Below, piece by piece: positions 1-37,096 of a stretch of DNA of 64,000 nucleotides; position 1 is the first letter of the stretch; every line of letters begins with the position of its first letter. The DNA is taken from positions 24,614,001-24,678,000 of the forward strand of contig CAIIXF020000001.1 of the NCBI GenBank assembly GCA_903813345.2, written 5' to 3'. The notes under the pieces are model-generated. The model saw only the letters and a program-made list of their open reading frames with translations. It was not told the origin of the DNA and did not search any database. The stretch comes from Owenia fusiformis. Its lineage: Eukaryota. The translations under genes and the position numbers were made by a program.

Positions 1-893
1 GATTGAATAGGATAGGTGGGATGGATATAGCCGAGTCGTCCAGAATAAGCCAAGTCGTCCAGTCCTATCCCTCTTTCCTATCCTTCTTATCCTATCCTTC
101 CTTCCTATCCTATCCTTCCTTCCAGAATAGGAAGGAAGGATAGGATAGAATAGGAAGAAACGATAGGATAGTATAGGATAGGAAGGAAGGATAGGATAGG
201 AAGGATAGGAAAGAAGGATAGGATTGGATAGGATATACGATAGGATATAGGATAGGATATAGGATAGATATAGGATAGGATATAGGATAGGATATAGAAT
301 AGGAAGGAAGGATAGGATAGGAAGGAAAGGATAGGAAGGAAGAATAGATAGGAAGGATATGATGAGACAGGATAGGAAGGAAGGATGGATGATTTTTTCT
401 ATATTTTCTTCGCTACTCTTGACTTTCTATAAGGATATCATCAGATCGATTTTTCTCGAAATTGCAAAACGCCATAACTTTCGAACCGGAAGTCGGATCG
501 AAATTTGGTTTGCAGATTCGGATTCCTGAGTAAATTCTACCCTTAATTCATAACTCAGATGTTAAATTTGGAGAACTTTTCATTTTGACCTACTTTCTGG
601 ACGCCATATTTCAAAATCGGTAAGCGTAATCAAAAATCTAATGTCATATCTTTGCTTTGGCTTTTTCTAAGCTACATGATGAAAAAAAGATTTAGGAGTT
701 TCGATAAACAACGACGAAGATAAATGACAGAATGTTGAAAATGTAAGATTTGACCTAGTTCTTGACCTTTGAACTAGATAAAAATTTGACCCAATTTCCG
801 ATAAACTAGATCTAGGACCTAAATGGACCATATATAGGACTTGACTCAATATCTTCTAGTTAACGAGAAAACTGGGAAAGAATAATAAAAATA
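1..893 (-). mobile_element. Helentron/HINE-like element copy E1 (runs off the window start; 5' terminus displaced)
   Basis: Same body as copy 6432-7902: GCCGAGTCGTCCAGAATAA seed, GATAG/GGAAG purine tract (~1-390), core CGCCATAACTTTCGAACCGGAAGTCGGATCGAAATTTGG and the TTTGACCTAGTTCTTGACCTTTGA block. It ends in an AAT-rich tract with no terminal hairpin. Confidence 0.75.
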
Positions 894-3604
894 ACTAGAT
901 TTGTGAAATTGAACAAGTTCAATTTAAGACCCCAGATTTATTTGACCTAGATAGATCAGTAAAGAGCTGAGTAAGTAACTGAGTAATTAGCTGAGTAAGT
1001 ACCTTAGTAGTAGTTGAGTAAGTAGCTGAGTAAGTAACTGAGTAAAAAGCTGAGTAGGTAGCTGAGTAAGAAGCTGAGTAAGTACCTGAGTTAGTAGCTG
1101 AGTAAGTTGCTAAGGAAGTAATAACTAATTAAGTAATTGAGTAAGTAGTCAAATAAGTAGCTGAGTAGGTAGAGAGGTAAAGTAGGGTATGCAGGAATTT
1201 TTGAAAGTATATTTGATCAATCTGCATCGTGAATACTGGCAAGTGCGAATTTCAAACTTCAAAATGATGAGAATCTAAACCGGGGGTCGGATTGCAATTT
1301 TAATTTCAGATCCAGATTCCTGAGGAAATTCTACCCCTAATTCATAACTCATACTTTAAAATTGGAGAACTTTTTATTTTGACCTACATTTCGGACACCA
1401 TATCTCAAAAGTGGGTCAAAAACTTATTGACGGCAAAATGTTAACATTATTAGCACACTCTTTGCTACAAGTTTACAAAATTTCGGAGAATATCATTGAA
1501 GTGTAGTGTCAGAATCGCAAAATAAAAAAAACTATGAATTTGACCTAGATTTTGAAATAGGTATTTTGGTGTCCAAACTTTGAAGGAAAGTAGCATTTGA
1601 GGTCCCCTTCTTCTATGGGCTTTCATTATGTTTAGCTGTACTCATTCTATATCTCGTATTTTTATACTTCAAAAAATTATTCGGTCCCATTGATTTAACA
1701 TTGGGCACCAAATTTAGCGATTTTTGAGATTTCAAAACGCCATAACTTCAGAACAAGTAGTCGGATCGAAATTTGGTTTGCAGATCTAGATTTCTGAGAA
1801 AATTCTACCCTTAATTCATAACTCATACGTTAAATTTGGAAAACTTTTAACTTTGGCCTACTTTTCGGACACCATATCTCAAAAGTGGGTCAAAATACTT
1901 TCTGACGGCAAAACGCTAACACTATTAGCATACTCTTTGCTACCTGTATACAAAATTTTAAAGCAAATCATTTAAATATAGTGTCAGAATCGCAAAAATA
2001 AGGGAAAACTATAAATTTGACCTAGATTTTGACCTAGGCATTTTGGTGTCCAAATTTTGGAGCTAAGTAGCCTTCGAGGGCCCCTTCTTTAATAGGCTTT
2101 CATTATATTAAGCTGTACTCAGTCTATATCTCGTATTTTACACTTCAAAAAAATCTTTTTTCCCATTGACATAACATGGGGCAGCAAATTTAGCGATTTT
2201 TGAGCTTTCAAAACACCATAACTTCCGAACAGGAGGTCGAATCAAAATTTGATTTGCAGATTCGGATTCCTGATAAAATTCTACCCCTTATTCATAACTC
2301 ATACGTTACATTTGAAGATTTTTTTATTTTGACCTACTTTTGGGACACCATATCTCAAAAGTGGGTCAAAATACTTTTTTGACGGCAAAAGGCTAACACT
2401 ATAAGCACACTCTTGGCTACATGTATACACAATTTCGAAGAATATAATTAAAGTGTAGTGTCAGAATCGCAAAAATAAGGAAAAGCTTTGAATTTGACCT
2501 AGATTTTGACCTAGGCATTTTGTTGTCCAAATTTTCAAGATTAGAAGGTTTTGAGGTCCCCTTCTTTTATGGGCTTCCATTATGTTTAGCTGTACTTAGT
2601 CTATATCTCGTATTTTACACTTCAAAAAAATATTTTTTCCCATTGACATAACATGGGGCACCAAATTTAGCGATTTTTGAGCTTTCAAAACGCCATAACT
2701 TCCGAACCGGAAGTCGGATCGAAATTTGGTTTGCAGATTCGGATTCCTGAGAAATTTCTATACTTAATTCATAACTCAACCGTCAAATTTTGAGAATTTT
2801 TTATTTTGACCTACTTTTCGGACACCATATCTCAAAAATGGGGCAAAATACTTTCTGACGGCAAAAGGCTTACACTATTAGCAGACTCTTAGCTACATGT
2901 ATACAAAATTTCCAAGAATATAATTAATCTGTTGTGTCAGAATCGCAAAAATAAGGAAAAACTTTGAATTTGACCTAGATTTTGACCTAGGCATTTTGGT
3001 GTCCAAATTTTGAAGCTAGATGGCTTATGAGGTCCCCTTCTTTTAAAAGCTTCCATTATATTTAGCTGAACTCAGTCTATATTTCGTATTTTTCACTTCA
3101 AAAAAATCTTTTTTCCCATTGACTTAACATGGGCACCAAATTTAGCGATTTTTGAGCTTTCAAAACGCCATAACTTCCGAACGGGAAGTCGGATCAAAAT
3201 TTGGTTTGCAGATTCGGATTCCTGAGAAAATTCTACCCTTATTTCATAGCTCATATGTTAAATTTGGAGAACTTTTTGGTTTTGACCTACTTTCAGGACG
3301 CCATATCTCAAAATCGCTCAGAGTAATCAAAAAACGGATGGCACACTCTCGATTTGTTTTTTTCTAAGCTACATGTAGAAACTAAGATGAAGTAGTTACG
3401 ACAAACAACGACGAAGATAATTGACAGAATGTTGATTTGACCTTGATTTGACCTAGTTCTTGACCCTTGACCTAGATAAAAATTTGACCTAATTTCCCAT
3501 CATCCCAGGTACTGCCCCTAGTTGATCATGTAAGCAGCTCAAAGTAAATTCTTTTAGTTGGTGAGAAATCTGGGAAGGAGGAAGATTCTGAAAGAATAAT
3601 AATA
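894..3604 (-). mobile_element. Helentron/HINE-like element copy E2 with internal satellite array
   Basis: On the minus strand the 3' end is subTIR-like AATCTGGGGTCT, stem-loop AAATTGAACTTGTTCAATTT (906-925), then CTAGT (894-898). It contains a GCTGAGTAAGTA 12-bp array (~965-1170) and ~4 tandem ~477-bp units. Confidence 0.8.
1250..3300. repeat. ~477-bp tandem satellite units inside HINE E2
   Basis: Marker TTCAAAACRCCATAACTT recurs at ~1731, 2207, 2684 and 3160. Confidence 0.9.
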
Positions 3605-6431
3605 ACTAGATTTGTGAAATTGAACAAGTTCAATTTAAGACTCCAGATTTATTTGACCTAGATAGATCAGTAAAGAGCTGAGTAAGTAACTGAGTAATTA
3701 GCTGAGTAAGTACCTTAGTAGTAGTTGAGTAAGTAGCTGAGTAAGTAACTGAGTAAAAAGCTGAGTAGGTAGCTGAGTAAGTAGCTGAGTAAGTACCTGA
3801 GTTAGTAGCTGAGTAAGTTGCTAAGGAAGTAATAACTAATTAGTAATTGAGTAAGTAGTCAAATAAGTAGCTGAGTAGGTAGAGAGGTAAACTAGGGTAT
3901 GCAGGAATTTTTGAAAGTATATTTGATCAATCTGCATCGTGAATACTGGCAAGTGCGAATTTCAAACTTCAAAATGGCGTAGAATCTAAACCGGGGGTCG
4001 GATTGCAATTTTAATTTCAGATCCAGATTCCTGAGGAAATTCTACCCATAATTCATAACTCATACTTTAAAATTGGAGAACTTTTTATTTTGACCTACAT
4101 TTCGGACACCATATCTCAAAAGTGGGTCAAAAAACTTATTGACGGCAAAATGTTAACATTATTAGCACACTCTTTGCTACAAGTTTACAAAATTTCGGAG
4201 AATATCATTGAAGTGTAGTGTCAGAATCGCAAAATAAAAAAAAACTATGAATTTGACCTAGATTTTGAACTAGGTATTTTGGTGTCCAAACTTTGAAGGA
4301 AAGTAGCTTTTGAGGTCCCCTTCTTCTATTAGGGCTTTCATTATGTTTAGCTGTACTCATTCTATATCTCGTATTTTTATACTTCAAAAAATTATTCGGT
4401 CCCATTGATTTAACATTGGGCACCAAATTTAGCGATTTTTGAGATTTCAAAACGCCATAACTTCAGAACAAGTAGTCGGATCGAAATTTGGTTTGCAGAT
4501 CTAGATTTCTGAGAAAATTCTACCCTTAATTCATAACTCATACGTTAAATTTGGAAAACTTTTAACTTTGGCCTACCTTTCGGACACCATATCTCAAAAG
4601 TGGGTCAAAATACTTTTTGACGGCAAAAGGCTAACACTATTAGCACACTCTTGGCTACATGTATACACAATTTCGAAGAATATAATTGAAGTGTAGCGTC
4701 AGAATCGCAAAAATAAGGAAAAGCTTTGAATTTGACCTAGATTTTGACCTAGGCATTTTGTTGTCCAAATTTTCAAGATTAGAAGGTTTTGAGGTCCCCT
4801 CCTTTTATGGGCTTCCATTATGTTTAGCTGTACTTAGTCTATATCTCGTATTTTACACTTCAAAAAAATATTTTTTCCCATTGACATAACATGGGGCACC
4901 AAATTTAGCGATTTTTGAGCTTTCAAAAGGCCATAACTTCCGAACCAGAAGTCCGATCGAAATTTGGTTTGCAGATTTGGATTCCAGAGAAAATCCTATC
5001 CTTAATTCATAGCTCATACGTTAAATTTGGAAACTTTTTATTTTGACCTACTTTTCGGACACGCCATAACTTCCAAACCTGAAGTCGGATCGAAATTTGG
5101 TTTGCAGATTCGGATTCCTGAGAAAATTCTATACTTAATTCATAACTCAAACGTCAAATTTTGAGAATTTTTTATTTTGACCTACTTTTCGGACACCATA
5201 TCTAAAAAATGGGGCAAAATACTTTCTGACGGCAAAAGGCTAACACTATTAGCAGACTCTTAGCTACATGTATACAAAATTTTGAAGAATATAATTAATC
5301 TGTTGTGTCAGAATCGCAAAAATAAGGAAAAACTTTGAATTTGACCTAGATTTTGACCTAGGCATTTTGGTGTCCAAATTTTGAAGCTAGATGGCTTATG
5401 AGGTCCTCTTCTTTTGATTTGCAGATTCGGATTCCTGATAAAATTCTACCCCTTATTCATAACTCATACGTTACATTTGAAGATTTTTTATTTTGACCTA
5501 CTTTTGGGACACCATATCTCAAAAGTGGAAGTCGGATCGAAATTTGGTTTGCAGATTCGGATTCCTGAGAAAATTCTATACTTAATTCATAACTCAAACG
5601 TCAAATTTTGAGAATTTTTTATTTTGACCTACTTTTCGGACACCATATCTAAAAAATGGGGCAAAATACTTTCTGACGGCAAAAGGCTAACACTATTAGC
5701 AGACTCTTAGCTACATGTATACAAAATTTTGAAGAATATAATTAATCTGTTGTGTCAGAATCGCAAAAATAAGGAAAAACTTTGAATTTGACCTAGATTT
5801 TGACCTAGGCATTTTGGTGTCCAAATTTTGAAGCTAGATGGCTTATGAGGTCCCCTTCTTTTAAAAGCTTTCATTATATTTAGCTGAACTCAGTCTATAT
5901 TTCGTATTTTTCACTTCAAAAAAATCTTTTTCCCATTGACTTAACATGGGCACCAAATTTAGCGATTTTTGAGCTTTCAAAACGCCATAACTTCCGAACG
6001 GGAAGTCGGATCAAAATTTGGTTTGCAGATTCGGATTCCTGAGAAAATTCCTTTCCTTACCCTTATTTCATAGCTCATATGTTAAATTTGGAGAACTTTT
6101 TGGTTTTGACCTACTTTCAGGACGCCATATCTCAAAATCGCTAAGAGTAATCAAAAAACGGATGGCACACTCTCGATTTGTTTTTTTCTAAGCTACATAG
6201 AGAAACTAAGATGAAGTAGTTACGACAAACAACAACGAAGATAATTGACAGAATGTTGATTTGACCTTGATTTGACCTAGTTCTTGACCCTTGACCTAGA
6301 TAAAAATTTGACCTAACTTCCCATCATCCCAGGTACTGCCCCTAGTTGATCATGTAAGCAGCTTAAAGTAAATTCTTTTAGTTGGTGAGAAATCTGGGAA
6401 GGAGGAAGATTCTGAAAGAATAATAATAATA
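3605..6431 (-). mobile_element. Helentron/HINE-like element copy E3 (near-identical to E2, internally rearranged)
   Basis: ACTAG + hairpin + AGACTCCAGATT at 3605-3650. The first ~1 kb nearly duplicates the sequence from 894, and both copies end in the same GATTCTGAAAGAATAATAAT tail. Confidence 0.8.
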
Positions 6432-7902
6432 ACTAGACTTTGGAAATTGAACGAAGTTCAATTTCAGACTCCAGATCTAGACTTTTTTAAGCCCAGTCAT
6501 CTAAAATAAGCCGAGTCATCCAGAATAAGCTGAGTCATTCAGAATAAGATGGATGGATAAAATAGGAAGGTAGGATAGGATAGAATGGGAAGGAACGATA
6601 GGATAGAATAAGGAAGAAGGATAGGATAGAACAGAATGGGAAGAAAGGATATGATAGGAGAGGATAGGAAGGAAAAGATACGAAGGAAGGATAGAAAGGA
6701 AGGATAGGATAAGATCAGATAGGAAGGATGGATGAATTTTTCAACATTTTCTTCTCTACTCTTGACTTTCTATCAGGATACCATCAGATCGATTTTCCGA
6801 AATTTCAAAACGCCATAACTTCCGAACCGGAAGTCGGATCGAAATTCGATTGAAAGATTCGGATTCCTGACAAAATTCTACCCCTAATTCATAACTCAAA
6901 CGTTAAATTTGGCGAATTTTTATTTTGACCTACTTTTCGGACACGCCATAACTTTGGAACTGGAAGTCGGATCGGAATTTGGTTTGCATATTCGGATTCC
7001 TGAGAAAATTCTACTCTTAATTCATAACTCATATGTTAAATTTGGAGAACTTTTTATTTTGACCTACTTTTCGGACACCATATCTCAAAAGTGGGTCAAA
7101 ATACTCTCTGACGGCAAAAGGCTAACACTATTAGCACACTCTTGGCTACATGTACACACAATTTTGAAGAATATAATTAAAGTGTAGTGTCAGAATCGCA
7201 AAAATAAGGAAAAACTTTAAATTTGACCTAGATTTTGACCTAGGCATTTTGGTGTCCAAATTTTGAAGCTAGATGGCTTTTGAGGTTCCATTCTTTTAAA
7301 ACCTTTCATTATATTAAGCTGAACTCAGTCTATATTTCGTATTTTTCACTTCAAAAAAATCTTTTTTCCCATTGACTTAATATGGGCACCAAATTTAGCA
7401 ATTTTTGAGCTTTCAAAACGCCATTACTACCGAACCGGAAGTCCGATCCAAATTTGGTTTGCAGATTCGGATTCCTGAGATCATTCTACACTTATTTCAT
7501 AACTCACATGTTGAATTTGGAGAACTTTTTGTTCTGACCTACTTTCCGGACGCCATATCTCAAAATCGGTAACAGTAATCAAAAATCTGATGGCACAGTA
7601 TAAAAGGGCTGTTTCTAAGCTACATGATGAAAAAAAGATGAAGACGTTTCGATAAATAACGACGAAGATAATAGACAGAAGGTTGAAAATGTAAGATTTG
7701 ACCTAGTTCCTGACCTTTGACCTAGATAAAAAATTGACCCAATTTCCGAGAAACTAGATACTGAACCTAAATTGACCATATACAGGTCTTGACTCAATGT
7801 CTTCTAGTTATTGAGAAAACGTGTTAAGAAAAATAATAATAATAAAGAAGAAGAAGAATAATGACAAAAGTAATAGACTCCAGATTTTCAATCTGGAGTC
7901 TA
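6432..7902 (-). mobile_element. Complete Helentron/HINE-like element copy E4
   Basis: 3' end ACTAG...AAATTGAACGAAGTTCAATTT-CAGACTCCAGAT (6432-6476); GATAG/GGAAG tract ~6545-6735; palindromic 5' subTIR TAGACTCCAGATTTTCAATCTGGAGTCTA at 7874-7902. Confidence 0.85.
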
Positions 7903-7911
7903 ATAATAATA

Positions 7912-9705
7912 ACTAGACATGTAAATTGAACAAGTTCAATTTAAGACTCCAGATTTCACATTTTTTTTAAGCTGAGTCATCCAGAACTTGTAAGCTGAGT
8001 CATTCAGAATAAGCTGAGTCAGCTAGAATATAGACATTTAGACAACTTTTAAGAAGGCTATCTTCGACTCTATTAGCTTAACATGGGGATATCATCATAT
8101 CGACTTTTCGAGACTTCAAACCGCTATAACTATCTAACCAGAAGTTAGATCGAAATTTGGTTTAAAGATTCTGATTCCTGAGAAAATTCTACCCTTAATT
8201 CATAACTCATACGTTAAATTTGGATAATTTTTTATTTTGACCTACATTTCGGACACCATATCTCAAAAGTGGGTCAAAAAACTTTCTGACGGCAGAAGGC
8301 TAACACTATAAGCACACTCTTTGCTACCTGTATACAAAATTTTGAAGCAAATCCTTAAAGTGTAATGTCAGAATCGCAAAAATAAGGAAAAACTATGAAT
8401 TTGACCTAGATTTTGACCAAGGCATTTTTGCGTCCAAATTTTAAAGCTAGATAGCCTTCGAGGTCCCCTCCTTTTATAGGCTTTCAGAATATTAAGCTGT
8501 ACTCAGTCTTTATCTGGTATTTTACACTTCAAAAAATCCTTTTTCTCATTGACATAACATGGGGCACCAAATTTAGCGATTTTTGAGCTTTCAAAACCCC
8601 ATAACTTTCGAACCGGAAGTCGGATCGTAATTTGGTTTGCAGATTTGGATTCCTGACAAAATTCTACCCCCAATTTATAACTCATACGTTAAATTTGGAA
8701 TTTTTTTATTTTGACCTACTTTTTGGACACGCCATAACTTCCGAACCGGTAGTCGGATCGAAATTTGGTTTCCAGATTCGGATTCCTGAGAAGATTCTAC
8801 CCTTAATTCATAACTCATACGTTGAATCTGGAGAACTTTTTATTTTGACCTACTTTTCGGACACCATATCTCAAAAGTGGGTCAAAATACTTTCTGACGG
8901 CAAAAGGCTAACACTATTAGCACACTCTTTGCTACCTGTATACAAAATTTTAAAGTAAATTATTAAAGTGTAGTGTCAGAATCGTAAAAATAAGGAAAAA
9001 CTATGAATTTGACCTTGATTTTGACCTAGGCATTTTGGTGTCCAAATTTTGAAGCTATGTAGCTTTTGAGGTCCCCTTCTTTTATAAGCATTCATTATGT
9101 TAAGCTGTACTAAGTCAATATCCTGTATTTTACACTTCGAAAAAGTCTTTTTTCCCATTGACTTAACATAGGCACCAAATTTAGCGATTTTTGAGCTTTC
9201 AAAACGCCATAACTTCCGAACCGGAAGTCCGATCCAAATTCGGTTTGCAGATTTGGATTCCTGAGAAAATTCTACATCTTTTTCATAGCTCACACATTCG
9301 ATTTGGAGCATGTTTAGGCGTGACCTACATTTCGGACGCCGTATCTCAAAATCGGTAAGAGTAATCAAAATTCTGATGTCATATCTTTGATTCGCCTTTT
9401 TCTAAGCTACACGATGAAAAAAAGATGAAGGAGTTACGAAGAATATTGACGAAGATATGATGAAGAATGTTGAAAATGTAAGATTTGACCTAGTTCTTGA
9501 CCTTTGACCTAGATAAAAATTTGACCTAATTTCCCAGAAAGCCGGTTTCAGTCTTTAGTTAACCATGTAAGTTGGATTAAGTAAGCTGTTATAGTTGACG
9601 AGAAATTTGGTGAGGAGGAAGAAAAAAGAATAATAATAATAATAATAATAATAATAAAGAAAACAGGCAAAAACAATAGACTCCAGATTTTCAATCTGGA
9701 GTCTA
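7912..9705 (-). mobile_element. Complete Helentron/HINE-like element copy E5
   Basis: ACTAG + hairpin + subTIR at 7912-7955, two ~480-bp units, an (AAT)n tract and a palindromic terminus at 9677-9705. Confidence 0.85.
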
Positions 9706-9944
9706 AAAAGAAAACTGACGAAAGCAATAGACTCCAGATTTTCATCTGGAGTCTAATAATAATAATAATAAAGAAAACTGACGAAAGCAATAGACTCCAG
9801 ATTTTCATCTGGAGTCTAATAATAATAATAATAAAGAAAACTGACGAAAGCAATAGACTCCAGATTTTCATCTGGAGTCTAATAAAGAATAAGAATAAGA
9901 ATACTGACAAAAACAATAGACTCCAGATTTACATCTGGAGTCTA
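9706..9944 (-). repeat. Four further HINE 5' termini (hairpin + AAT tract) in tandem
   Basis: TAGACTCCAGATTT(T/A)CATCTGGAGTCTA at 9728-9755, 9791-9818, 9854-9881 and 9917-9944, with a 63-bp period. Confidence 0.9.
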
Positions 9945-10151
9945 ATAACAAATTAGACAAATTAGATTCAGATTTTATCGCTTGGCTCACATCTCCATCT
10001 GGTCGAAACAAAGCTGAAGAAACAGCAAAAAGGATCAGCCAAAATGTGAAATTTGTACTGGGCCTGCATGAAGATGTTGGTGGATTTCAGCCACAGGACC
10101 ACAATTTAATTTATTCAAAATTCATTGAACCTGCCATAAATGGAAAATTTA
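9945..10151 (+). pseudogene. Duplicated ~205-bp fragment of the zinc-finger/recombinase-like gene at 11279-11485
   Basis: Near-identical to 11279-11485. It reads FIAWLTSPSGRNKAEETAKRISQNVKFVLGLHEDVGGFQPQDHNLIYSKFIEPAINGKF with no stop. Confidence 0.8.
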
Positions 10152-10380
10152 TACTTATACCTAAAGTTATACTTAAGTTAAATTGTACAACAACCATCAG
10201 ATTAGTCAGATAAGTATACACTACGCTTAGTACTACATGTATAATTAATATAAATTAACATAAGAATTTAAATGAATCTTAGGTAATACCTAATTTAGAT
10301 TTATCATCCACTTAAATGTATCTTTAATAGTATATTCTTTATGATGTTGTAATTGATTCATTATTTATGAGCTATATGTA

Positions 10381-10880
10381 CTGTAGATTGGGTTAATTTG
10401 GCGCCCGCTTTAATTTGGCGAATTTGGCGAAACTGAAAAATTCGCCAATATAAATCTTCGCCAAAATTTAGAATGAATTCCTGGGAATTATCTAGGGTAT
10501 TTCATCCAGTTAGGTCACTTCCGGCTTAGTTTTTTCCAAAAATATGAAAAAATGTCTCTCATAAATTGGCGCAGAACTGGTCAGTCACTCATTAATACTC
10601 AGGGAAAAACTAGAAAGGAAAAGCGCGGTATAGTAGCAGCATCGATCGAGGTGCAAAATGTAAAGGATGATATCACAAAAATGTACAAACGTGGTGAATA
10701 TCGCCAGTTGACCTCAAAAGAAAAAGTGAACATAGCCAAACATGCCCATTTACATGGTAATTCGCAAACAGGGCGTCGGTTTAACATTTTTTTGCATATC
10801 CGCCAAAATAAATAGCCGCCAATATGCCAAAAATGGCAACATTGCCAAATTAAGTAGCGCCAAATTAACCCAATCTACAG
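10381..10880 (+). mobile_element. Internally deleted pogo-like (Tc1/mariner) element
   Basis: Perfect TIR CTGTAGATTGGGTTAATTTGGCGC at both ends, with TA on both flanks. Internal ORF 10552-10815 contains KRGEYRQLTSKEKVNIAKHAHLHGNSQTGRRF, resembling the Brinker-type DNA-binding N-terminus of pogo transposases. Confidence 0.85.
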
Positions 10881-10920: not shown

Positions 10921-11890
10921 AATCAGTTCTTAGCTCGTGGTAGGATTATATTTTCAGGTCCTCCAAGCCTTCATTTTCGAGTTGAAGGAAGAATTCATAC
11001 TGAATCGAAGGGAAAAAGTTGGCATACTTGCCGGAGTTGTTTCAAGAAATATAGAGATCTACCAAAACATATAAGACAGGTCCACAGCAAAGACGCAAAT
11101 TATAAAATACATGAAAACTATAAAGAATTGTACAAACACGAGTATTCAAGACGAAGTAAAAATAAATATCGAGGCTGTGTTTATAAGTACAAAGAATGCA
11201 AGAAATGTGGAAAAAATGTTCAGAGATTAGACAAGTATCAATGTAGTTCTCATGTACTCTTAAATGAAATCAAACTAAATAACAAATTAGACAAATTGGA
11301 TTCAGATTTTATTGATTGGCTCACATCTCCATCTGGTGGAAACAAAGCTGAAGAAACAGCAAATAGGATCAGCCAAAATGTGAAATTTGTACTGGACCTG
11401 CATGAAGATGTTGGTGGATTTCAGCAACAGGACTACAATTTAATTTAATCAAAATTCATTGAACCTGCCATAAATGGAAAATTTAGTAATATAAAGCAGG
11501 CCAGTACTGTGAAGGCATATCTTGAAAGACTGCAAGTCTCCTACTGAAAAAAGTACAATATCAGAAGCAGAGTACAGCATTTTTGTCAAACAAAATTGTA
11601 TCTGGTGTAATTCAATGGCGCTACAAAAGAAGAAACTTAGAAAATAAGGCTGAAGGGGAAAAACTTGCCAACTAAGGAGGAAGTGCACAAATATTTAAAA
11701 TCAGAATTTGTTTCAAATATAAAAAAACTATTCTTAAAAGAAACTCCTAGCATTTCAAAATGAGGAATTACCTCATCACTATTAACCATAATAATTAATC
11801 CTTGAAGAGTAGGTCCTTTCCTAAACCTCGAACCAAGGCATGTTCTGAATGGAAATGGAAATAATGAAAGATATGTCTACCATGTTTGAT
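10921..11890 (+). pseudogene. Decayed zinc-finger + tyrosine-recombinase-like gene
   Basis: Frame open 10921-11448: CRSCFKKYRDLPKHIRQVH, CKKCGKNVQRLDKY, FIDWLTSPSGGNK. After the stop it reads QASTVKAYLERL, and from 11760 MRNYLITINHIINP*RVGPFLNL, resembling recombinase box I (N-x-x-R-x-G). The TAA at 11446 is TAT in the duplicate near 10112. Confidence 0.55.
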
Positions 11891-13196: not shown

Positions 13197-14190
13197 TTAA
13201 ATTCCCAATAATGCCAAATACGAAAAATAGACGCAAAAAACTACAAGTAGTTGGTCAAATAGTTTATTGTACCTAACTAAACTAAAACAATAAACTACAA
13301 TAGAAGTTACATAATATTATAATGCGTTAATTAATAGATGTTACGTAATAATACAATAGAAAATACATAACAGTACATTGCATTAAAGTAGTTACATAAT
13401 AGCATATAATATTATGACCTCCCAGTCCAGTACACCCTAATTCAATTAAGGGGAGGGTGGGAGGGAGCATTAGCTAAAAATAGTACATGTTTAGTGCTTG
13501 GCTGCAGTAGCTGAAGTGATTAGATGATCTAGACATAATTAAAAGTTCATGACCTTTGCATGAACTGCAGAACCAGATGGCAACCTCTATAATTTAAATC
13601 TATTTCAACTGAAATTAAACTTAAATTCCCAATAATGCCAAATACGAAAAATAGACGCAAAAAACTACAAGTAGTTGGTCAAATAGTTTATTGTACCTAA
13701 CTAAACTAAAACAATAAACTACAATAGAAGTTACATAATATTATAATGCGTTAATTAATAGATGTTACGTAATAATACAATAGAAAATACATAACAGTAC
13801 ATTGCATTAAAGTAGTTACATAATAGCATATAATATTATGACCTCCGAACCCAAACTTGATGTTAAGTAGAAGTAGTAGAAGGTAGGTTAGTTGAAAAAG
13901 ATTTTGCCATCTCTACTTTTGAAGCTACAGGTAATTCAAGATAAACCTTATATGCGTCTGACTTCCAGTCACCTAGAATCTGGATGACATTAGGGGGAAG
14001 GCCTCTTTGTAGAGCCCAAGATGCACCTCCCCTCCTAAAGGAATGAGGTGAAAAACAAGTACGGTCATAACCTGCCTTAGCTAAGCATGTGCCCAGGAGA
14101 GATGAGAACAGGGAGGGGGGAAAAGGTTTACCTCTGGGCAACGTAAGGGGGGTTGTCTGGGCTGGAGGGGAAAGTAATAGCAAGGGCAGA
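13197..14190 (-). mobile_element. 3' end of a Ngaro-type (DIRS order) retrotransposon, 5'-truncated
   Basis: Recombinase C-terminus followed by identical 226-bp direct repeats (13621-13846, 13197-13422) separated by a 198-bp spacer, matching the B1-A2-B2 split-direct-repeat layout. Confidence 0.85.
13863..14183 (-). pseudogene. DIRS/Ngaro tyrosine recombinase, C-terminal fragment
   Basis: HSFRRGGASWA...IQILGDWKSDAYKVYL holds the catalytic H-x-x-R, W and Y; the N-terminal half is missing. Confidence 0.92.
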
Positions 14191-14479
14191 TAGTAGTGAC
14201 TTAAAATTCCAGGTTCACCCCTAAAGATGCCAGATTAACAGTAAATTGTATGACAGGTGGAGCAGTTACTCCAGACATATTTACTCCTACTTTGGTAATA
14301 ACAAACAAGCAGTATGAAGGAAATGTAAACAACCATTTGACAATCACAAACAAACTTACATAAATGCAAACAACCAGAAGAACAAATTGAAATTGAAGAC
14401 GTAACATTTACCATCCAGACAAGCCCAGGGTAGGAGGCAGAGAAGTAATTTGCGATACCAGCTCAGGATACCTCCATAT

Positions 14480-34801: not shown

Positions 34802-35745
34802 TAGACTCCAGATTGAAAATTGCTTTTGCCTGTATTCTTATTCTTATTAGCACGTTTTCTCAGTAACTAGAGGACTTGGAGTAAATCTAATTACATGGTC
34901 AGTTAGGCTATGTGACCTAGTTTCTGGGAAATTAGGTCAAATCTCTATCTAGGTCAAAGGTCAAAATTTAGGTCAATTTTTCCAATTTCACAAAATTTCA
35001 ATTTTCTTTTTAATCTATCATTATTTCTTGCGATGAATTAATTTATAGTTCCCTCTAAGTATTTCAAACATTTTGCTCACTCTATGAGCTGAAAATTTTA
35101 CCAATTTTGAGAAAGTCCACTCCAAAAAAAGGGTGAATTTCAAATTGTTCCAAATCTATTAAAATTAGTCTCAATTCAACAGAGAATTTGGTCAGGATTC
35201 CGAATCTGAAAACAAAATTGTGATCCAACTTCCAGTCCAGGAGTAAACACATTTTGAAATTTCAAAAAAATTATATGATGGTACCCTGATGGCATGTCTA
35301 CCTGACCGTTAATTTTCTCATTTCTCATTAATATCAGAGATCAAAATCTACCTGTAATAGGAAATTTTCTCAGGATTCCGAATCTGTAAACAAAATTGAA
35401 ATCAGACATCCGGTTCAGGAGCTATGGCCTTTTGAAATCTCAAAAAATCCCTACCGCTGCCACCAATGTAGCATCCTGATGTTAAGTCAATGGTAATCAA
35501 TAGCCAATTATCAAAAATTCAGTAAAATTTTGAGTGCTAGGGGGCAAGGTCAAAATCTAGGTCAATTTTGTTAATTTTGAGATTACCTTACTATTGATCA
35601 AATTTTGCTTTTAAAGTTGTGACGAACATAAATATTTTCTTTAAATTTCACTTTCTCATCTATATCAGATGTCAAAATCATTTTATAAATAAAAAAATGG
35701 AATCTGGAGTCTTGAATTGAACTTGTTCAATTTCTCCAATCTAGT
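34802..35745 (+). mobile_element. Helentron/HINE-like element, diverged subfamily
   Basis: 5' TAGACTCCAGATT + ATTCTT repeats; 3' AATCTGGAGTCT, stem-loop AATTGAACTTGTTCAATT, CTAGT. Confidence 0.85.
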
Positions 35746-35957
35746 TATTCCTTAAAATTGGTTATTTTAGTTATTTTACTATTACTCATTGGGGGCCCAA
35801 ATTTTAAGTCATCCGTAAAATTTCATCGATTGTGCGAAAAAAATGTGAAAAAAATAAAAATTTAGGGCCCATTTTTTATAATTAGGCCTAAAAAGGGCAA
35901 ATTTTGCCTAAAAAGGCAGTTTTGTATTGGGTGTTTTGAGGCACAATATGAAAAAAA

Positions 35958-37096
35958 ACTAGACATGTAAATTGAACAAGTTCAATTTAAGACTCCAGAT
36001 TTCAGACTTTTCTTAAGCTCAGTCATCCAGAATACTTGTAAGCTGAGTCATTCTGAATAAGCTGAGTCAGCTAGAAAATAGACATTTAGACAACTCTTAA
36101 GTAGGTTATCTTTTGACTCCATTGACAAAACATGGGTATATCATCATATCGAGTTTTCGAGACTTCAAGCCACTATAACTATCTAACCAGAAGTTGGATC
36201 GACATTTGGTTTAAAGATTCGGATTCCTGAGAAAATTCTACCCTTAATTCATAACTCATACGTTAAATTTGGAGAACTTTTTATTTTGACCCATATTTCA
36301 GACACCATATCTCAAAAGTGGGTCAAAATACTTTCTGACGGCAAAAGGCAAACACTATTAGCACACTTTTTGCTACCTGTATACAAAATTTTGAAGCAAA
36401 TCATTAAAGTGTAGTGTTAGAATCGTAAAAATAAGGGAAAACTATGAATTTTACCTAGATTTTGACCTAGGCATTTTTGTTTCCAAATTTTGAAGCTAGG
36501 TAGCTTTTTAGGTCCCCTTATTTTAGAGGCATCCATTATGTCAGGCTGTTCTCAGTCTATATCTTGAATTTTACACTTCAAAAAAGTCTTTTTTCTCATT
36601 GACTTAACATGGGGCACCAAATTTAGCTATTTTTGAGATTTCAAAACACTATAACTTCCGCCGGAAGTTGGATCGAAATTTGGTTTGCAGACTTGGATTC
36701 CTGAGAAAAGTTTACACTTATTTCATGACTCATAAGTTGCATTTGGAGAACTTTTTCGTTTGACCTACTTTCCGGACGCAATATCTCAAAATCGGTAGAA
36801 GTAATCAAAAAACGGATTACTCACAGTTGAATTGTCTTTTTATTGGCTACACGTCAAAATAAAATTTTGAAAAAATATTGAAAAATGACAAAGATAATTG
36901 ACAAAATTATAATTTGACCTAGATTTTGACCTTTGACATAGATAGAAATTTGACCTAACTTCCCAGAAACTAGGTATCATACCCTAACTGACCATGTAAA
37001 TAAATTTAAGTTCTTCTAGTTGCTGAGAAAAAGTGTTCAGAAAGAATAAGAAAACTGGCAAAAGCAATAGACTCCAGATTTTCATTCTGGAGTCTA
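35958..37096 (-). mobile_element. Complete Helentron/HINE-like element with one satellite unit
   Basis: ACTAGACATGTAAATTGAACAAGTTCAATTTAAGACTCCAGATTT as at 7912; palindromic terminus at 37068-37096; A-run flank. Confidence 0.88.

Follow-up and report, generated by a model that had tools for sequence, protein, structure and literature searches.

Bivalve genomes are rich in Helentron-borne satellite repeats, and how scattered copies give rise to arrays is still debated as an open question in the field. Lepidopteran Helitron-like elements were reportedly observed in (GAAA)n by Coates et al. in 2010. According to the excerpted literature, Helentrons use TT or T-rich targets without target duplication (PMC7492417; PMC2374699), and the HINEs (non-autonomous Helentrons) of oysters and Drosophila share a 5′ sub-terminal repeat with its adjacent complement, a microsatellite, repeats in the center, and, toward the 3′ end, a further sub-terminal repeat with a palindrome (PMC7492417; PMC4067079); left-flank microsatellites and clustering are known for these elements as well (PMC4067079). 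Complex loci of Crassostrea gigas hold truncated or tandemized Helitron parts inside other elements (Satovic-Vuksic and Plohl 2021, cited in PMC12628747 and PMC11136912), and aberrant rolling-circle copying has been invoked for Helitron arrays of plants in which many 5′ ends go with one 3′ end (Xiong, Dooner and Du 2016, via PMC12628747). MuTAnT inserts in (TA)n microsatellites (PMC4486113) and insertion in telomeric repeats has been proposed for Paramecium Helitrons (PMC13085455). Here, we describe a 64-kb window of AT-rich, eukaryotic-type DNA (Owenia fusiformis, assembly GCA_903813345.2, contig CAIIXF020000001.1, positions 24,614,001 to 24,678,000), in which positions 1-9944, read on the minus strand, hold five related HINEs in one orientation and arranged head to tail. 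The locus is an orderly variant of known transposon nesting, not a new kind of element, and this co-oriented nest probably arose by repeated insertion into the resident's (TTA)n tract ∼50 nt inside its 5′ end, followed by local duplication.

All parts of the stack lie on the minus strand; we numbered the bodies E1 to E5 and the 5′ palindrome units H0 (that of E4), H1 (that of E5), and H2 to H5 (orphans). E1 (1-894) is a HINE body that is 5′-truncated within a TTA-like tract (881-894), its 3′ end lying outside the window. E2 (895-3605) begins, in plus coordinates, with CTAG (895-898), a stem-loop, a sub-terminal repeat (927-937), and (AGCTGAGTAAGT)n, and continues through 4.2 monomers of 477 bp (1307-3313) and the 5′ flanking part to an (AAT) tract (3595-3605), without a 5′ palindrome. 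E3 (3606-6432) is a near-copy of E2 with a rearranged satellite part (2.2 copies of the 477-bp period at 4018-5062); it also lacks the palindrome and ends in an (AAT) tract (6419-6432). E4 (6433-7902) is complete, belongs to an E1-like subfamily, and comprises its 3′ end (6433-6476), 19-bp repeats, (GGATA)n, and a 5′ palindrome (7874-7902) that was absent from an earlier account of this DNA made from its letters (the sequence-only reading). A tract remnant, ATAATAATAA (7903-7912), is the host (TTA) leftover between the palindrome of E4 and the 3′ end of E5. E5 (7913-9705) is a complete HINE with its 3′ end at 7913-7954, (ATT)9 at 9629-9657, and its 5′ palindrome at 9677-9705. Beyond it stand the orphans: H2 (9706-9755), a palindrome (9728-9755) plus leader whose tract has been cut to CTTTT by E5; H3 and H4 (9756-9881), two identical 63-bp units composed of palindrome, leader, and (ATT)4AT; and the outermost H5 (9882-9944), a 63-bp unit with a TTCTTA-type leader, which sets the outer boundary of the whole stack at 9944/9945. 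Tandem Repeats Finder (TRF) reported a 63-bp period at 9707-9948 (3.8 copies, 95% matches). The four 3′ ends start at 895, 3606, 6433, and 7913 in plus coordinates, and at the E1/E2, E2/E3, and E3/E4 junctions (AAT)n is followed directly by CTAG with the palindrome missing. The sequence-only reading had described hairpin-less bodies E1-E3 that end in an AAT tract and abut the next 3′ end, all of which were present with coordinates within 1-2 bases, and its five stacked 5′ hairpins at 9677-9944, one belonging to E5 and four orphaned, were found where it had placed them. Simple repeats between the element ends are of the 12-bp, 19-bp, or GGATA type. The 3′ part of E1 is rearranged, with 19-bp repeats (28-62) between simple repeats of the GGATA type on both sides; (TCCTA)n at 63-123 is inverted and faces (ATAGG)n at 124-390.

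We identify the elements as HINEs because their anatomy fits the architecture described in PMC7492417 and PMC4067079. A complete 5′ end consists of the perfect palindrome TAGACTCCAGAT-loop-ATCTGGAGTCTA, a leader of ∼20 nt, and a TTA or TTCTTA microsatellite. The repeat TAGACTCCAGAT (at most one mismatch) occurred 21 times in the window, compared to 0.33 expected from 100 shuffles, and at six sites it was paired with its complement across a 4-5 nt loop to give perfect palindromes with 12-bp stems (7874-7902, 9677-9705, 9728-9755, 9791-9818, 9854-9881, and 9917-9944), as in the 5′ ends of described HINEs. DNA folding of four of the palindromes (7873-7902, 9676-9705, 9727-9755, and 9916-9944) yielded −11.4 to −11.8 kcal/mol with z values of −7.1 to −8.2. 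The left-flank microsatellite of HINEs is represented by (ATT)9 in E5, (ATT)4 in E4, and TTCTTA repeats in H5 and in two solo copies elsewhere in the window, and the central tandem repeats by the 477-bp repeats of E2 and E3. The 3′ end, present in E2-E5 and both solo copies, consists of ATCTGGAGTCT, a stem-loop of 8-10 bp (AAATTGAAC..GTTCAATTT), and a terminal CTAG; the sub-terminal repeat of E2 carries one mismatch, and the stem-loop of E4 is a sequence variant. When folded, three of these 3′ ends (E3, E4, and E5) formed 8-10 bp stems with modest z values of −1.5 to −3.2. All eight 5′ flanks end in T and all eight 3′ flanks begin with T, which may reflect a TT target, a target-site duplication, or Ts that terminate the element. 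Three stop-to-stop frames of at least 120 amino acids overlap 1-9944; the one that was scanned against Pfam (8976-9401, the others being 9548-9928 and 9585-9956) matched no family, and no Rep or helicase family was matched by the 13 scanned of the 15 frames of this length in the window.

The position of the breakpoints carries the argument for insertion into the element's own tract. All seven (three of bodies and four of orphans) fall within the microsatellite tract, and what is missing from the bodies is precisely what is found on the orphans; these observations support the proposal of the sequence-only reading that newcomers landed in (TTA)n just inside a resident 5′ terminus. The E1/E2, E3/E4, and H2/E5 joints connect different subfamilies, so they are not duplication products and at least three insertions are needed. 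Nesting in the own tract by at least three insertion events is therefore well supported. The window contains 10 tracts of (TTA)≥3, seven of which are in the stack, and neither solo copy has a (TTA) run of three or more units or an insert. The flank after CTAG begins with TTATT at seven of eight 3′ ends (all but solo B, namely E2-E5, solo A, and the two metagenome relatives L001 and L002), and the flank before the 5′ end is TTAT in six of eight cases (exceptions, H1 and solo B), which suggests a TTATTA-like target. Furthermore, the metagenome contig L002, a relative at 68-70%, is collinear with the stack across all three palindrome-less junctions (J1, J2, and J3), and thus the same type of junction occurs in another genome.

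An origin without self-targeting, in which one or two chance insertions hit a T-rich spot and unequal crossing-over, slippage, or aberrant rolling-circle copying made the rest, is unlikely in our judgment. It draws on the compatibility of E2/E3 and of H2-H4 with duplication, on the nature of the tracts as direct repeats that favor unequal exchange, and on partial accounts of plant arrays in which a single 3′ end is preceded by multiple 5′ ends (Xiong et al. 2016, via PMC12628747) and of tandem arrays produced by missed termination (PMC4067079). Duplication, however, cannot put different subfamilies (E1, E2/E3, E4, and E5) into a tract, where at least three insertions are required, one for each distinct CTAG/TTA junction. 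A TT preference alone is also insufficient because E2 offers 337 sense and 376 antisense TT sites (∼713) versus ∼8-9 in its reconstructed tract, and three chance hits in that tract would be very unlikely. The rolling-circle model predicts units without 3′ ends rather than bodies without 5′ ends, and the recurrence of the junction in the distant L002 also speaks against chance. Two related candidates were rejected. A rolling-circle concatemer origin of E2-E3 would leave a complete 5′ end at the circle junction, and the idea that alternative 5′ nicks within the tract produced the truncated bodies is less parsimonious, since it needs separate 3′-adjacent insertions and leaves the orphans unexplained.

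Sequence comparisons among the bodies and termini bear on how many insertions the orphans represent. The region 600-893 of E1 is 85% identical to 7549-7841 of E4 and 80-81% identical to E2/E3; in their 5′ flanking parts, E2/E3 and E5 are 76% identical. E2 and E3 are 98-99% identical over 894-1890/3606-4604 and 2747-3605/5565-6432, with the satellite part alone rearranged; E3 has an internal duplication (5061-5415 and 5527-5862), both copies of which resemble 2690-3044 of E2. The 3′ half of E5 is 87.7% identical to a solo copy (35951-36798). Among the 5′ units, H2, H3, and H4 agree at 49-50 of 50 positions, and no letter separates H3 from H4 over all 63 nt, the tract remainder (ATT)4AT included, whereas the distinct units (H5, the H2-4 type, H1, H0, and solo B) differ at 4-7 of ∼49 positions. 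The leader of H5 has the TTCTTA repeat of both solo copies, and E4 has TTC repeats at that place. When an orphan was joined by coordinates to E1, the resulting 5′ region aligned collinearly with that of E4, which is intact, over 259 columns, of which 225 were matches, 26 mismatches, and 8 gaps; the E1 join scored 375 with H5 and 364 with H4, and the E2 and E3 joins fitted E5 with scores of 294 and 301 using H4 versus 276 and 283 using H5, these gaps between the H4 and H5 joins being small.

Given that E2 and E3 are 98-99% alike, two identical termini are expected from them. A third identical terminus would have to be that of E1, which is unlikely because E1 is 80-81% like E2/E3 in the 5′ flanking part; with E1 diverged by 15-20%, the surplus unit is probably a duplicate copy. 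Judging from these alignments, H5 is probably the 5′ end of E1 itself, and two of H2-H4 probably belong to E2 and E3, the third having probably been copied locally when slippage or unequal exchange took place between the flanking tracts. E2 and E3 could represent two insertions or, equally, one insertion plus unequal exchange. The claim that the four orphans are four independent termini is not supported, given the near-identity of H2-H4, and the sixth body that the fourth orphan had been taken to predict upstream finds no support, the surplus unit being better read as a local copy. That the near-identical units might be slippage copies of one terminus had been raised by the sequence-only reading as a challenge to itself, and for the surplus unit this is now the best reading.

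It is accordingly quite unlikely, and somewhat less probable than an origin without self-targeting, that every unit records an independent nested transposition, a scheme in which the orphans would be the ends of E3, E2, E1, and one more body (E0) that lies beyond the window on its upstream side. Such a scheme has the appeal that a single mechanism suffices, the flanks of E2 and E3 (∼1% apart) would lead one to expect identical 49-63 nt termini for both, and the 3′ end of E1 and all upstream sequence lie outside the window, where there is room for E0. It nevertheless needs H4 to be an E1 terminus that matches those of E2/E3 letter for letter, although E1 shows the lower identity noted above in the adjacent 200-290 nt, and although five independent termini differ at 4-7 of ∼49 positions; H3 and H4 even share their exact tract remainder, and E1 is fitted slightly better by H5 than by H4.

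The order of events that we infer for nesting in the own tract is as follows. E1 (subfamily A) would have been the resident, with H5 as its 5′ end, and an E2-type element (subfamily B) would have inserted in its tract. The near-identical E3 may then have inserted in the tract of E2 or may derive from E2 by unequal exchange between tracts. E4 and E5 would have inserted 10 bp apart in the innermost tract, and one 63-bp unit of palindrome, leader, and tract would have been doubled by slippage or unequal exchange between the flanking TTA tracts. Helentrons integrate between the two Ts of a TT on one strand, and (TTA)n presents TT on the sense strand of the element only, so that a newcomer would take the direction of its host; the co-orientation of the copies can therefore be accounted for by these two properties. 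Each insertion would displace the palindrome of the resident outward, and the outcome would be bodies lined up head to tail on one side, faced by 5′ termini that are piled up in mirror order. A broader proposal, which we offer tentatively and with less than even confidence, is that TTATTA-like sequences are the preferred targets of the family, whose members have a tract of just this sort 50 nt in from the 5′ end, in which case every copy with a long tract would act as a strand-specific landing pad for the next and the family would seed its own co-oriented nests, expandable by unequal exchange.

Several points weigh against nesting in the own tract as set out here. No empty-site allele was seen, and the TTATT after CTAG could belong to the element's 3′ end instead of the target. 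The flank counts come from only eight termini of each kind, half of them inside the stack itself, and the 3′ end of E1 is out of view beyond the window. The pairing of H5 with E1 depends on just 2-3 extra matches, and the length of exactly 63 nt shared by H3, H4, and H5 hints that H5 itself could be an old tandem copy. Finally, E2/E3 and the identical units could be two haplotypes falsely laid in tandem, 9608-9844 having been masked in the read check.

Of 13 sequencing runs retrieved, four (X1, X2, X3, and X11) were placed on 9400-10500, where 9608-9844 was masked as repeat and stood outside the read comparison. The only junction covered is the outer one, where a single contig of X1, which may be the source sample, spans 9922-10011 and shows 0 differences. 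In X2 and X3, contigs over the unique flank match up to the outer edge of H5 and break off at exactly 9944, with 72 and 10 letters remaining, and this break could mark an empty or a different allele. Among the raw reads of X11, four step back by 56 nt and five by 53 nt at an H5-type unit (nine in total), and tandem H5-type 5′ termini are thus present in a second data set. On the unique flank (9955-10361), the depth of X11 was zero. Joints and loose ends in the placed reads stem mostly from other genomic copies. A partial assembly artefact, in which the assembly strung together the two haplotypes of a single polymorphic HINE (as E2 and E3) along with surplus 63-bp units, is unlikely in our judgment. 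The 1-2% difference between E2 and E3, together with their satellite rearrangements, is allele-like, and no read or contig was placed across the masked 9608-9844. Against an artefact stand the heterologous junctions and the outer junction, which are independent of it, the faultless X1 contig, the nine X11 reads with tandem H5-type units, and the internal duplication of an E2-like segment in E3, which is no simple overlay of alleles. Next to the compared flank, 10362-10472 is rich in TTCGCCAA and TTGGCGAA words and had very high depth in all four runs relative to the single-copy depth of its neighbors; it is probably another high-copy repeat family.

Two further copies of the family lie elsewhere in the window, tail to tail with their 3′ ends ∼215 bp apart. 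Solo A (34802-35744, plus strand) is flanked by CCTTAT before its 5′ end and TTATTCC after its 3′ end; its 5′ end has lost the second palindrome arm, so that TAGACTCCAGATTGAAAAT leads straight into the leader. Solo B (35959-37096, minus strand) is a complete copy without a (TTA)n tract, flanked by GTAGT and TTTTTTTT. Relatives were found on two contigs (L001 and L002) of a metagenome contig collection. Positions 1-1726 of L002 have the same CCAGACAAGA-type simple repeat at both ends and include the body of a related HINE, to which the following copy is joined by its 3′ end; from its sequence, the contig resembles part of a pair or array of head-to-tail copies in a different, bivalve-like genome. 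A viral contig collection gave 0 matches to the HINE 3′ end and 0 to the 5′ palindrome. Exact palindrome matches in two genome contigs, L003 (3001-3027) and L004 (3001-3028), were rejected as chance, being intergenic hairpins in bacterial metagenome-assembled genomes (MAGs) with no HINE context, and a search with the palindrome only is thus not specific. Elsewhere in the window, a 123-amino-acid frame at 13863-14234 (minus strand) weakly matches the tyrosine recombinase family Phage_integrase (E 0.00016, below the Pfam cut-off), and it may derive from a Crypton- or DIRS-like element of which only a fragment is left. A 175-amino-acid frame at 10921-11448 (plus strand) has a weak TSTD2_N match (E 0.0014, below the cut-off), and the stack may lie beside or within a host gene.

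If the own microsatellite is a preferred, strand-specific target, it would provide a simple and testable rule for the head-to-tail clustering of these elements. The same rule, if true, would explain the origin of higher-order repeat units and would show how Helentron copies scattered through bivalve genomes can pass directly into tandem arrays of element-length units and into new satellite DNA. Nested loci of this type are a trap for annotation and assembly. Should the preference be only apparent, the stack would be one more complex Helitron locus of a type already reported from oysters.

The closest described elements are Cg_HINE, Pearl, and DINE-1, with which the present copies share, as far as the excerpted descriptions extend, the 5′ sub-terminal repeat with adjacent complement, the left-flank microsatellite, and satellite-like central repeats (PMC7492417; PMC4067079), as well as the 3′ sub-terminal repeat with palindrome, T-rich or TT flanks, and no coding capacity seen. 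They differ from Cg_HINE in their monomer of 477 bp, compared to 140-180 bp in the 11 described Cg_HINEs (monomers of clusters CL1-13; PMC7492417), and in a TTA/TTCTTA microsatellite where Cg_HINE mostly has a 4-nt GTCY-type repeat. The sub-terminal repeat strings were absent from the searched supplementary texts of PMC7492417 and PMC8268682, and the corresponding 10-mers were absent from the Cg_HINE supplementary file, which lists repeat arrays rather than flank consensuses. Nesting in an element's own microsatellite is not described in the excerpted Cg_HINE, Pearl, and DINE-1 literature (PMC7492417; PMC4067079), nor was a description for any Helitron or HINE found in the literature searched, which left most subscription journals outside. 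The complex C. gigas loci are attributed to mixed insertion, deletion, tandemization, and recombination, and the partial accounts of them state no preferred site, co-orientation, or mirror order. With the plant arrays, as they are summarized in the secondary source, the stack shares several 5′ ends before a single 3′ end (H5-H1 and then the E5 body), but here the unit is 63 bp long, outer and inner units differ, and matching 5′-less bodies stand on the other side; the four 3′ ends, three bodies without 5′ ends, and at least three types of 5′ unit set the stack apart from a truncated array of the kind described by Xiong et al. With the microsatellite-targeting transposons, in what is excerpted of them, the HINEs share an insertion aimed at a simple repeat; in those systems the repeat belongs to the host genome, whereas here it is borne by the element itself and each insertion adds a new target.

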